A DNA stretch of 31,500 bases from a virus. Taxonomy: Duplodnaviria > Caudoviricetes. Shown in pieces: positions 85-14,824 of the stretch. The stretch covers positions 1-31,500 of the IMG/VR virus record IMGVR_UViG_3300032320_002325. One strand, written 5' to 3'. Numbering within the stretch: position 1 is the stretch's first letter; the number at the start of each line of letters is the position of its first letter. The notes beneath the pieces were generated by a model. The model was not told the origin of the DNA, searched no databases, and was given only the letters and a program-made list of their open reading frames with translations. Position numbers and translations under genes: made by a program.

Positions 85-89
85 TTACG

Positions 90-472
90 ACTCTGTGTTG
101 GATGCATGATCCAACCCCATTGAGCAACGGTGCAATACCCGGTGCAGACTTGGGTGTCAAAGGCAACTGTTAACTTAAGGCAGCAAATGGTTGGGGCAAT
201 GAGAAAAAGCAACCCCTGCTTATAGGACTTGGATCTATTTCGGGTTACTAGGGTTCCGTTGATATGTGAAGCTTGAGTAGGGGGTACCGGTCAACCGCCT
301 CCGTGTTGGAAACAACAATCTCATTAAAATAGATGACTGCGGTCACTCAGATGATGCATTCAATTCACCGTGCATACGGTGAATTATGACCACAGTATCT
401 AGATGATACTAATTCAAAGAAACAGTTAGTTGTTGAGCGATAGCGAAAACAACAGACTTGCGCAGCAAGTCT
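90..472 (+). ncRNA. Candidate large structured non-coding RNA (alternatively a structured origin)
   Basis: ORF-free gap in a gene-dense genome. Stems: 97-103/109-115; 304-308/313-317 with GAAA loop; 362-371/376-385 (10 bp); 336-345/387-396 (9 of 10); 454-461/465-472. Crossing long-range pairings: 198-204/319-325 and 233-240/327-334. Confidence 0.55.
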
Positions 473-817
473 TTAATCATCTAAGTTAGTATCTGGCCAA
501 TCTCTAAACAATGCATGTTGTATTGTACCTGAAACAAACTGATTGAATGACTTGTGTTTCTCTTCGAGTTCGCCTTTGAGTGGTGCTACTCGACGGAATG
601 CACTATCCATTTGTCCCATATCCTTGAACTCCATAAGGATCATCCATTCTGGCATGTCTGCAATTGAACGAAAGCCCATTTTGCAACGTGTGATTCTGTA
701 TGATTCCATCTTACCTTCTGAAATCAAATGATCAAAGAAACTTTTCATTCCGTTGACCCAGTCAAGGTCTGATATATCGCCTTCTTTGTCTGCCCAAATT
801 GTATATAAGTCTGCCAT
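473..817 (-). CDS. Hypothetical protein, dimeric alpha/beta-barrel (DUF6614-like)
   Basis: 114-aa ORF with GGAG SD. The pattern YRITRCKMGF...MEFKDMGQMDSAF...LFRDWPD resembles DUF6614/Dabb-type proteins from memory. Confidence 0.55.
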   Translation of the reverse strand: MADLYTIWADKEGDISDLDWVNGMKSFFDHLISEGKMESYRITRCKMGFRSIADMPEWMILMEFKDMGQMDSAFRRVAPLKGELEEKHKSFNQFVSGTIQHALFRDWPDTNLDD

Positions 818-11882: not shown

Positions 11883-12731
11883 ATGCAATTATTCAAACAC
11901 TCTGGTAGAGATGTATTTTTGTTAGTTCAAACTTTGGTAACTGTAACAGTACCATTGATATTTGCAATCTCTAATCCAGATGTTGTATGGTGGGTGTTGT
12001 TGTTACCACTACATGTTATGTTGATGTTGTGTTGTAACAATACATCGGTACACCATCATTCACATTGGGAAACGTTTAATAGTAAAATATTAAATCGTGT
12101 TTACGAGTGCGTGTTGTCAATCGCAGGTGCAACACCTGTACAAGTATATAGAAATTCACATTTGATTCACCACAAATTTGTAAACGATCCTCCAGAAAGC
12201 AAAGATATAATTAGTGTACTGGCCAATGGAACCAATGGGCATGCTGAAAACGTTTGGAAATTTTGCCTAGGCTGGACTGTGAAAACTAACTTTTTATATG
12301 GATGGGCAACTGGCAAAATAAAATCAATGCCACTGGTCAAACATGCACACTGGCAGAGAGAATCATACATGTTGGTAGTTTTTACAATGTTATTGTTATG
12401 GGTGAACTGGCAATATGCACTGTGGTGGTTTTTCGTAGTGTGCCCGGTCATGCAGTTTTTAAATGCCGCTTGGCATTACGGAGAACATTGGGGCGCACAT
12501 GATCGCAGAGGAGATACCACACAAGACTCTGTGGGTATCTACAATTGGTGGTACAATACTTTTTGTTTTAATTCTGGTTTACATCAAGAGCATCATCACA
12601 AGCCCGGCGTACATTGGGCCAAATTGCCATCTGTGACACCATTGTTGCACCCTGGCAGAGTCACAGCCAAGGGCATGCACATTTTTAATGTGCCCTGGCG
12701 TAAAGATTTTAAAAAGTTAGTTAAACTTTAA
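11883..12731 (+). CDS. Membrane fatty acid desaturase/hydroxylase superfamily protein
   Basis: Three His boxes (HHHSH, HLIHH, HQEHH) and hydrophobic transmembrane stretches. Confidence 0.88.
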   Translation: MQLFKHSGRDVFLLVQTLVTVTVPLIFAISNPDVVWWVLLLPLHVMLMLCCNNTSVHHHSHWETFNSKILNRVYECVLSIAGATPVQVYRNSHLIHHKFVNDPPESKDIISVLANGTNGHAENVWKFCLGWTVKTNFLYGWATGKIKSMPLVKHAHWQRESYMLVVFTMLLLWVNWQYALWWFFVVCPVMQFLNAAWHYGEHWGAHDRRGDTTQDSVGIYNWWYNTFCFNSGLHQEHHHKPGVHWAKLPSVTPLLHPGRVTAKGMHIFNVPWRKDFKKLVKL

Positions 12732-13869
12732 ACCAACTAAGATATTGTGCAATTTTCTTTGTGACACTGGACCAGTCATCTTGCACAGGTTGTCTAAACA
12801 GTCGCGCAGTTGAGTACCAAGGGCAGTCGTCGCGATTTAACAAATAACGCCAGTCTGTACCAAACCAGTTGAGCATGATCCAAGTGGGACGACCTAACGC
12901 ACCACTCAAGTGTGACACAGCGGTGTCTACCCCGATAACAACATCCATGGCCATGATCAGTGCCGCGGTGTCGGCAAAACTTTGTATTGTGCCTGGGAAT
13001 CTACTCACGCCGGCTGCGGCCAACTCAGATTCTTCTTCCTCGCTGGCATCAATTTGCAAGTTCACCCATTCATATTGTGGGTTGGCTTTGATCAAATCTA
13101 ACATCACTGGGAACGGCATGCCTTTGTGTTCGTTCAGCCAGTTGTCTTTCCTGCCACTCCAGCAAAATCCCACTCGCATGCGATTCTTTGGACCCAGGCG
13201 TTGCAACCACTCTTGTTGTTTGCCCATGTCTGCATTGAGATAGTTTACAGGTCTTGGCAAGTTTTCTAGTGTCACCCCAATGATACCAGGGATACTCATG
13301 ATAGGGGTCCAGTAATCAAAGTCGCCTACATCATCCACATATCTTCCAATGGTTTCAATCAATGGACTGCCCGCAAACAACGGAATAAGCGAGTCTGTGA
13401 CTTTGAGTTTGATCTTAGCACCCAGAACATGAAGATTGTAGATAAATCTTATGAACTGAATGTTGTCACCGTGACCTTGTTCGCCTTCCACAAGGATAGT
13501 TTTATCTTTGAGTTCTTGTCCAGTCCAACGAGGTTGTGCGTATTTAGGCAGTTGACCAGCTAGGTGTTCGTAGTTCCAGCGTGTTTCGTACTGTTGCCAA
13601 CCAGCTTGATAGTTGCCCAATTGCAACAATGCCACAGCAAGATTGAATTGTGCTGTGGCTGATGTGGGCTCTAGTATAATGGCGTGTTGTAAAAATGGTA
13701 TGGCTCTAGCAGGTTGCCCGCACTCTCTCATGACATTGCCATAGTTGTTCCAGGCTGCTGAAGATTCTGGATCTTCAACAAATGCTTGAGCGTAACATTT
13801 GAGAGCTTCTAGCGGGCGATGTTGTGCTCTAAGGTCGTTGCCTTGAGCGATAAGAGTGTTTGTGTCCAT
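12721..13869 (-). CDS. TPR-repeat glycosyltransferase (GT-B, GT9/FlmG-like)
   Basis: N-terminal TPRs (AWNNYGNVM, AQFNLAVALL), EQGHGDNIQF, and FADTAALI..DVVIGVDTAVSHLSGALGRPTW...DWRY...PWY..ARLFRQ. Confidence 0.85.
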   Translation of the reverse strand: MDTNTLIAQGNDLRAQHRPLEALKCYAQAFVEDPESSAAWNNYGNVMRECGQPARAIPFLQHAIILEPTSATAQFNLAVALLQLGNYQAGWQQYETRWNYEHLAGQLPKYAQPRWTGQELKDKTILVEGEQGHGDNIQFIRFIYNLHVLGAKIKLKVTDSLIPLFAGSPLIETIGRYVDDVGDFDYWTPIMSIPGIIGVTLENLPRPVNYLNADMGKQQEWLQRLGPKNRMRVGFCWSGRKDNWLNEHKGMPFPVMLDLIKANPQYEWVNLQIDASEEEESELAAAGVSRFPGTIQSFADTAALIMAMDVVIGVDTAVSHLSGALGRPTWIMLNWFGTDWRYLLNRDDCPWYSTARLFRQPVQDDWSSVTKKIAQYLSWFKV

Positions 13870-13874
13870 GGGTA

Positions 13875-13880
13875 TATTTA
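13875..13880 (-). promoter_or_regulatory. Late promoter core TAAATA (TPR glycosyltransferase, likely leaderless)
   Basis: Reads TATTTA on +; 5 nt before the minus-strand ATG at 13869. Confidence 0.55.
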
Positions 13881-13911
13881 ATGTGCAGTTTAGGCCATTT
13901 TACGTTTTTGC

Positions 13912-13995
13912 TAAATACTTGTCAACGCAATACGGCGTTTTATGCAGGTAGCCCCTGCGTAGCGGCTAGAACCCGCATTGGGCTTCTATAAGGAG
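13912..13995 (+). promoter_or_regulatory. Late promoter plus structured 5' leader (three hairpins, pseudoknot abutting the SD)
   Basis: TAAATA at 13912-13917. Stems 13924-28/35-39, 13941-48/54-61 and 13962-65/73-76. Loop TAGAA (13967-71) is complementary to TTCTA (13984-88), next to AAGGAG. Confidence 0.55.
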
Positions 13996-14002
13996 AAATC
14001 AA

Positions 14003-14824
14003 ATGGCAAGAGCTCTAAAAATTCAAAAGTATGGTACCGCACAAGGTATCACAATCAATTCTAACGGCACAGTAAATCAACCTGCTGCCGCCGTAGCAAT
14101 CGATCAAGGTTACCCAAACTTTGGATCATTGACTGATCCAGTATACAATGAACCAGTACAAACACTCAGTCCTGCTGACTTCTTGGGCGTGGTCGGTGGT
14201 TTGAGCACCGCAGCTACATCAGCAACTTATCCTATCATTCTTCCACAAGTTAATATCAGCCTGTCTGATGGCAGTTCAACTGGTGCAGGCAATGGTCGTT
14301 TGATTCGTCAAAAGGGCGCACACAAGTTTTTGGTAGCTTATGTTGCCAGCGCCACAGCTGATGAAAGTTTCATTGTGGGTCAAGCCTATAGTGTTGCTGT
14401 TGTGGGCACAACCGATTGGGCAGCAGTTGGCGCAGGAACAAATGTGGCAGTTGGTGATATTTTCACTGCTACTGCTGTTGGTTCTGGTTCTGGTACAGCA
14501 TATCCAGTTGGCATCTGCGTGTTGTCAAATACAGGCACTCCAACAGCTGGTAACATGAGTATTGAATACTCAGTAGGCGACAGTTCTGCTGTGTATGCCA
14601 GTTATATTACCAACAAGTGGGTTCGTGACTGGAATGGCATGACTTATCAGAACTACAGTAATAGTAACGCTGGTACTAACATTCAAAGTGGCGAAAACTT
14701 CTATCCTGTGAACTTCTTCACAGACGAAGGTACCGTTACATGGTCTGGTGCAGAAGTTATCAACGGCGCCAATGCTCAGAACGGCAGCCTACAGTTGGCA
14801 CAAGTGGTCAAAACTACAAGCTAA
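14003..14824 (+). CDS. Putative virion structural protein (unknown function)
   Basis: 273 aa, rich in Gly/Thr/Ser/Ala/Val; strong SD; late promoter; IRQKGAHKFLV motif. Confidence 0.65.
   Translation: MARALKIQKYGTAQGITINSNGTVNQPAAAVAIDQGYPNFGSLTDPVYNEPVQTLSPADFLGVVGGLSTAATSATYPIILPQVNISLSDGSSTGAGNGRLIRQKGAHKFLVAYVASATADESFIVGQAYSVAVVGTTDWAAVGAGTNVAVGDIFTATAVGSGSGTAYPVGICVLSNTGTPTAGNMSIEYSVGDSSAVYASYITNKWVRDWNGMTYQNYSNSNAGTNIQSGENFYPVNFFTDEGTVTWSGAEVINGANAQNGSLQLAQVVKTTS

Follow-up and report, generated by a model that had tools for sequence, protein, structure and literature searches.

Several large, multi-stem and pseudoknotted RNAs are associated with phages or mobile elements, among them GOLLD, ROOL and HEARO/omega RNA. 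In the plasmid ColE1, a G-run of RNA II pairs with the template near the origin. PMC5043065 describes for ColE1 a long non-coding RNA, a persistent hybrid, trimming by RNase H and a non-template strand that serves for helicase loading. Phage T4 primes at several R-loop origins (PMC3016281); all that these require is a promoter plus an AT-rich unwinding element, without any particular sequence. The Polynucleobacter-1 RNA motif was reported by Weinberg et al. 2010 (PMC2864571), where the accessible text lists it without a function. In the jumbo phage PA5oct, ncRNA004 was annotated by RNA-seq and accounts for 0.08, 0.03 and 0.02% of the phage reads in the early, middle and late phase, respectively; the portion of the article at hand (PMC7318152) gives neither a structure nor a function for it. 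The literature searched gave no account of how T4-like jumbo phages start DNA replication.

The window, i.e. the whole stretch of 31,500 nucleotides that was analysed, comes from a T4-like jumbo phage of a lake. Pfam recognises a portal, a prohead protease, a gp23 capsid and a baseplate hub, complete relatives of the phage measure 337-347 kb, and the nearest cultured portals (44-54% identity) are those of Atu_ph07, PA5oct/Paride, Phosso and the GAP32/121Q group. The original prediction, made from the letters of the window, had placed a pseudoknotted RNA candidate in what it called the only large non-coding gap, and 85-472, which is bounded by the 3' end of a GIY-YIG gene and by a DUF6614 gene in convergent orientation, is indeed the only gap of more than 150 bp between the main ORFs. 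A second gap (13870-14002, 133 bp) contains the Rfam freshwater-2 RNA (RF02980, 73 bits; 13923-14005, plus strand), in the leader of a 273-aa gene. On the minus strand, 473-1751 holds three coupled small genes, for DUF6614, a weak ATE_C-like transferase and a DUF6875-like protein, and a fatty acid desaturase gene and a TPR-glycosyltransferase gene (11883-13869) are situated directly 3' of the major capsid gene. The complete relative G001 has further gene-free gaps of 0.4-1.2 kb at 84412-85050, 105318-106508, 115859-116364 and 188117-188562.

A 22-nt pattern from the element, together with the downstream protein, yielded 199 loci (some contigs twice), 178 of which contain the element. The comparative set consisted of 58 non-redundant homologues; nine loci with long insertions or strong divergence, loci that failed the length or repeat filter, and four of the 61 listed were excluded from it. 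Folding energy alone was only modestly better than that of shuffled sequences (z -2.16; other strand -2.30) and 11 perfect 7-mer pairings were seen in 331 nt, where ~4.7 are expected by chance, so that single pairings required comparative tests. In the 58 homologues, a model of 69 pairs was paired in 95.7% of the cells and none of 500 shuffles was as good; columns 281-302 are uninformative, because they were set by the search pattern. It had been proposed that compensatory changes among homologues should decide on the candidate: 34 of the 69 pairs change on both sides. Conserved among T4-like jumbo phages, the stretch 89-409 forms a structured element (Table 1). Covariation, RNA-type loops and the RNA-seq-annotated relative in PA5oct support a functional structured RNA of ~320 nt on the plus strand (~330 nt in the original prediction). 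Metatranscriptome contigs with relatives of 70-410 were found in 4/4 RNA runs (4 studies), with the neighbouring genes covered too; such contigs carry no strand, end or level information, and the pieces ending near 410 continue in unlike letters and are therefore no evidence of a 3' end.

Table 1. Coordinates of the structured element in the window, its repeat, its hairpin tail and the flanking genes.
Feature	Position	Strand	Basis or occurrence
SegE-type GIY-YIG gene, last 27 codons of ~142 aa	1..84	+	PF19835, phrog_447
5' domain, three-way junction (89-91/156-158, 97-103/109-115, 116-119/151-154)	89..158	+	covariation model
Hairpin with conserved 9-nt loop	167..183	+	4/4 pairs with double changes
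Hairpin with conserved GAAAAAG loop	193..216	+	122/135 class A regions; matching motif in PA5oct/Paride elements (L538, L597, L598)
Stem; loop 233-240 in pseudoknot with 327-334	223..250	+	covariation model
Core common to class B and the 121Q group	256..323	+	comparative
Repeat copy 1, unpaired stretch: ATGAC box 333-337, invariant CTC, then 349-357	333..357	+	covariation
Hairpin separating the two repeat copies	362..385	+	covariation model
Repeat copy 2: ATGAC box 386-390, invariant TCT, then 401-409	386..409	+	covariation
Hairpin with tandem G.A mismatches under a 2-bp stem	429..453	+	235/244 loci
Abutting hairpin, C(GCA)G triloop	454..472	+	C(GNA)G in 127/226 loci
DUF6614 gene, convergent	473..817	-	outside the element; other genes in its place in many relatives

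All complementarities of the original prediction exist where it had put them, including a GAAA hairpin (304-317) and a 10-bp hairpin (362-385), and two of its three pseudoknots hold. The pseudoknot 233-240/327-334 is kept over 233-237/330-334 in 92.6% of the cells, with double changes in 3/5 pairs. Within class A, the class of the window, the pairing 258-262/291-295 does not vary (its right side is fixed by the search pattern), and it shows compensatory changes in other classes, namely in class B, the 121Q group and metagenome loci. The third pseudoknot, 198-204/319-325, was paired in 59% of the cells, while 320-323 truly pairs with 274-277, and the 9/10-bp outer stem (336-345/387-396) was paired in 51%. 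Jointly, these two were no better than shuffles (147/500); they are chance pairings. In the fold that remains, the hairpin of the 5' domain is capped by a T-loop-like 7-mer (131-137). Within the core, 291-295 lies in the loop of hairpin 280-302, a GAAA hairpin occupies 305-316, and the closing stem 274-277/320-323 is 100% paired with 17 double changes. An internal hairpin of class B has a GNRA loop in 52/62. Long AT-rich insertions are tolerated by the GAAA hairpin at 305-316 (L028, L181, L022, L067 and L107).

The last hairpin of the element is flanked by a direct repeat that was absent from the earlier account. The repeat is bipartite and measures ~25 bp overall. In class A, two of the five strongest covariation signals are identities and not complements (349/401 and 353/405). 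Positions 1, 2 and 5 were identical between the copies in all 268 loci that could be parsed (expected fractions 0.51, 0.64 and 0.59), out of 285 distinct loci; the 17 unparsed loci were left uncounted and by eye most have the repeat in other letters. With a looser parse, positions 1-6 were identical in 243/244 distinct loci from four classes, though positions 1, 2 and 5 vary, and an independent metagenome scan, with a pattern permitting differences between the copies, gave 116/120 identical matches. At positions 8-9, the differences allow a wobble in 186 cells if copy 1 is placed on the minus strand of copy 2 and in 6 cells if the roles are exchanged, a count that is suggestive and not a probability, because one nearly fixed column dominates and the loci are related. 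The wobble of class A shifts from position 8 to position 9 via two joint changes (55 vs 19 loci). A complement of the repeat on the same strand was present nearby in 2/225, vs 9.5 expected by chance, so the partner should be the other strand. Copy 1 (349-357) is the predicted reader of the template strand and the minus strand of copy 2 its predicted target. Two other readings of the repeat were rejected: a pairing of copy 1, within the RNA, with the ATCT ahead of copy 2 does not hold in class C, and the G that a kink-turn or a box C/D would require varies.

A hairpin with tandem G.A mismatches stands at a median of 34 nt past copy 2, and its loops vary over GNNA (including GNYA) and GNA triloops. 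DNA hairpins gain stability from GNA triloops and tandem G.A pairs, and the variation in the tail loops would be as expected for single-stranded DNA rather than RNA; the folding energies of the tail hardly distinguish the strands. In a strict scan the tandem-GA motif occurs once in the window, is one of two in each of the complete genomes G001 and G002 and is the sole one in 121Q, with none in Paride or ColE1. A looser scan located the motif in ColE1 at 1332, on the strand of the primer RNA. In many class B and C loci (L136, L138, L199, L237 and others) the reverse complement of the motif precedes the one on the top strand; located just past copy 2, it would put a signal on each strand. It is absent in the window.

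Two further RNAs, classes B and C, occupy the same slot in relatives found via the downstream gene, and in the loci read the slot holds another class rather than standing empty. Class B begins with Polynucleobacter-1 (RF01718; 5' ~140 nt, loci scoring 69-120 bits). The class A model matches 7/7 class B loci over the 3' part (E 4e-10 to 6e-18), class C has only the 3' module in common with the window, and metagenome loci include chimeras of an A-like 5' end and a C-like core. Full-length class B RNAs are thus homologous to the core and the 3' module of the window and are situated in the same slot, but the 5' domain of the window is another one and the Rfam model ends too early to include the core, the repeat or the hairpin tail. 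By covariance model the window is not Polynucleobacter-1 (no RF01718 match at E<=10 in 60-500). Judged by these model matches, the element is kin to RNAs carrying Polynucleobacter-1, yet with a different 5' domain. The earlier view that no family could be assigned was correct for Rfam, since the check it had proposed gave no match for 60-500 at E<=10, including GOLLD, ROOL, group I/II intron and RNase P, but the 3' two-thirds do have homologues in the Polynucleobacter-1-bearing RNAs. The element also differs from GOLLD, ROOL and HEARO/omega RNA in matching none of their Rfam families. By blastn, classes A and B matched no record of GenBank phages and class C gave only a 28-nt chance match; classes A and D had only chance matches in PLSDB. 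The literature searched holds no description of the element; fragments may be catalogued in three supplementary files of PMC10690425 that this search did not cover.

Among cultured phages, the matching slot is gene-free over 0.8-1.0 kb in 121Q and Phosso and contains only tiny ORFs in Paride, and a large slot gap is absent in Atu_ph07 and Vibrio phage 2.275.O (2/5 cultured relatives). An annotated RNase HI lies directly 3' of the slot gap of Phosso. The 121Q element is present in four copies spread over the genome, and 72 GenBank records contain matches to it, at 293 places in all. A 100%-identical copy is found in phage Sharanji, whose record names E. coli K-12. Each of the four 121Q copies has a 6-7-nt repeat pair around the last hairpin, and the compensating core pseudoknot was found in 3/4 by script and in the fourth by eye. 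Per genome, jumbo phages of enterobacteria and Pseudomonas have copies at 3-5 places. PA5oct has three, and its ncRNA004 (MK797984.1 246116-246734) is a paralogue of its slot element. The annotation of ncRNA004 lies on the predicted strand, with a TTGACA promoter ahead, and ends 13 nt after a 5-nt repeat and before the hairpin tail (tail seen by eye). Sigma-70-like promoters precede the 121Q and the PA5oct copies. As a paralogue of the element in the matching slot, ncRNA004 shares one hairpin motif with class A and likewise ends before the tail, but it is ~620 nt long, its repeat is only 5 nt, and the class A model does not match (tested on the paralogue L538). Since the class A and 3'-domain models gave no match in cultured phages, these elements are look-alikes sharing motifs.

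The fold contains a stretch identical to the DNA that follows immediately past the end of the fold, which makes it likely that this is a template-gripping RNA that starts the copying of phage DNA. On balance, we consider it probable, though far from assured, that the structured RNA gene and the DNA-type hairpins together form a replication origin primed by its own transcript through an R-loop like that of ColE1 RNA II. The transcript of the plus strand would be made and would then fold. With the aid of the ATGAC box, unpaired copy 1 (349-357) would base-pair to copy 2 (401-409) on the template strand, so that the duplex would stay open once RNA polymerase has passed and a persistent R-loop would result. 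An RNase H activity, either the T4-RNase-H-like 5'-3' exonuclease of the phage or that of the host, would leave a 3'-OH primer for rightward leading-strand synthesis, and the displaced top strand would fold into the hairpins 429-472 and load a helicase or primase for the lagging strand. One copy of the element is present in a fixed slot in each of 5/5 near-complete freshwater genomes. A PF02739 exonuclease, which we take to be of the family of T4 RNase H, was found in 5/5 genomes searched (three freshwater, two cultured phages), and a PF00075 RNase H in none of 5/5 freshwater genomes. No strand-skew switch was found at the element in four genomes (four-fold sites, gene orientation removed) and raw GC and AT skew gave no origin signal; the skew test has little power, since no GC switch above the null was seen anywhere in any genome. 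A late-promoter-like octamer, found ahead of the GIY-YIG gene in 64/80 class A loci, counts against an origin, because most T4 origins fire early or middle, and a sigma-70 scan in L002 was at chance level (3 vs 2.1 expected). Antitermination was rejected as a function, as no co-oriented gene follows in the window.

Compared with ColE1 (NC_001371.1), the locus has a similar long structured non-coding transcript and direct repeats around the last hairpin, and ColE1 has the same tandem-GA hairpin downstream at 1332 on the same strand and the same T-loop-like 9-mer at 978. As expected of a ColE1-type replicon, the window has, on a comparative basis, an RNA segment identical to downstream DNA, for which pairing with the template strand would be possible, and a hairpin signal on the displaced single strand, with the same motif as in ColE1 and a function that is putative here. 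The element differs from ColE1 in belonging to a phage or island instead of a plasmid, in having an AU-rich variable 9-nt repeat instead of the G-run, and in being shorter; six nucleotide profiles gave no match to ColE1 at E<=10. By analogy, we find it somewhat probable that the element works like ColE1 RNA II without being a member. The resemblance to T4 oriF/oriG (PMC3016281) is in the T4-like phage, the R-loop that a transcript would make, its predicted processing by RNase H, the several origins and a position near a transcription strand switch (7-10 kb in G001 and G002). The window differs from these T4 origins in its large conserved fold and sequence-matched repeat. The co-varying repeat links the start of jumbo-phage replication and the function of Polynucleobacter-1 into one question. 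If the origin reading is true, RNA-primed origins with elaborate folds occur in giant phages and integrative islands as well as in ColE1 plasmids.

The gene upstream had been called GIY-YIG-like and was suggested as a partner of the RNA. Its homologue in L002 bears out the first point (SegE-type, PF19835, E 2e-32), and in two complete relatives it ends the operon gp55-gp47-gp46, as read from translations. Each of 495 GenBank phage records has one copy of it. A PDB sequence search with the protein gave no significant match. The family (L002:1872-2297) also has an invariant Asp68, presumably at the position of the catalytic Arg by I-TevI numbering, and a basic insertion; many records are labelled 'NAD synthetase'. 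In class C loci (L123, L151, L177 and others) a spacer of ~250 nt, apparently a short gene, is often located between the GIY-YIG gene and the RNA.

In the suggested partnership, RNA and GIY-YIG protein would be joined in one ribonucleoprotein, which might for instance be a nickase that the RNA guides to copy 2. The gene does adjoin the RNA in 65/88 class A loci and in 55/69 class B loci, its residues Y22, Y33, G35, E109 and N126 are nearly invariant, and some room for a partnership is left because all classes have the 3' module in common. However, it is separated from the RNA by other genes in 17 and not found in 6 of the class A loci (23/88 together), and it does not track the RNA class, as different classes lie next to proteins that share 98.6-100% identity. 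By blastn, the phage records that contain the protein have no match to class A or class B, PF19835 was not found over its cut-off in the five cultured jumbo relatives searched, and the gene is missing from the neighbourhoods of the class D islands. An obligate, co-varying RNA-nuclease pair of the HEARO/OMEGA kind was therefore not observed; the partnership is unsupported, we regard the ribonucleoprotein as quite improbable, and the gene is probably a neighbour. Still more remote would be an explanation in which a protein binds the repeats as tandem DNA sites (iterons or operators), conversion keeps the copies alike and the RNA has an unrelated trans function. The bipartite build of ~25 bp would suit protein sites, and T4 oriE has iterons (PMC3016281), but a protein that tolerates variants would not make the copies switch together in 243/244 loci, the differences are biased to wobble-compatible pairs, and the flanks CTC and TCT stay different.

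The promoter and skew data bear on a further alternative, a late R-loop clamp that opens the DNA for recombination-dependent replication or the initiation of packaging instead of priming an origin. It agrees with the late-promoter-like octamer upstream, with the absence of a skew signal and with a slot that follows gp55-gp47-gp46 and in cultured relatives a Holliday-junction resolvase. We nevertheless think it unlikely, as the 121Q and PA5oct copies have sigma-70-like promoters, ncRNA004 is highest early, and islands carry the module without gp46/47. The exchange of classes could also point to a selfish mobile RNA module, with the repeat as its recognition or insertion signal and classes swapping by homing or self-insertion. 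This would account for near-identical GIY-YIG genes preceding different classes, for the chimeras of 5' and 3' halves and for the multiple places within a genome (3-5 in jumbo phages of enterobacteria and Pseudomonas, up to 3 in one Rhodobacteraceae genome). It is hard to reconcile with exactly one copy in a fixed slot in 5/5 freshwater genomes and with a slot that, in the loci read, is refilled by another class and not empty, and neither a reverse transcriptase nor a transposase is a constant neighbour, so that we hold a selfish module to be improbable.

The module is also present outside phage genomes. When bacterial genomes were scanned with a pattern, 50 matches were obtained, of which roughly half are chance, and class D emerged in Rhodobacteraceae (loci L477-L484, L493 and L577-L590); in a class D search of 301 genomes of one family, 3 had a match. 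Class D is located in low-GC islands, two of them at tRNA-Cys, with genes for an integrase, a 188-aa tyrosine recombinase, ParB/RepB proteins and toxin-antitoxin systems, and no Rep, relaxase or primase family was found among the 34 island ORFs scanned. The islands could be satellites of T4-like jumbo phages. A more speculative extension of the origin reading, which we put forward with considerable doubt, is a widespread, initiator-free replicon family of T4-like jumbo phages and satellite islands, in which a self-targeting origin ribozyme with interchangeable 5' domains would by itself find its template via the 9-nt repeat and cut RNA or DNA at the invariant bulged C to make the primer end. 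Five aligned class D loci with an intact 5' end have GATAAATA, which resembles the late-promoter octamer of the phages, shortly upstream of the RNA. One genome has two tandem copies of the class D island module.
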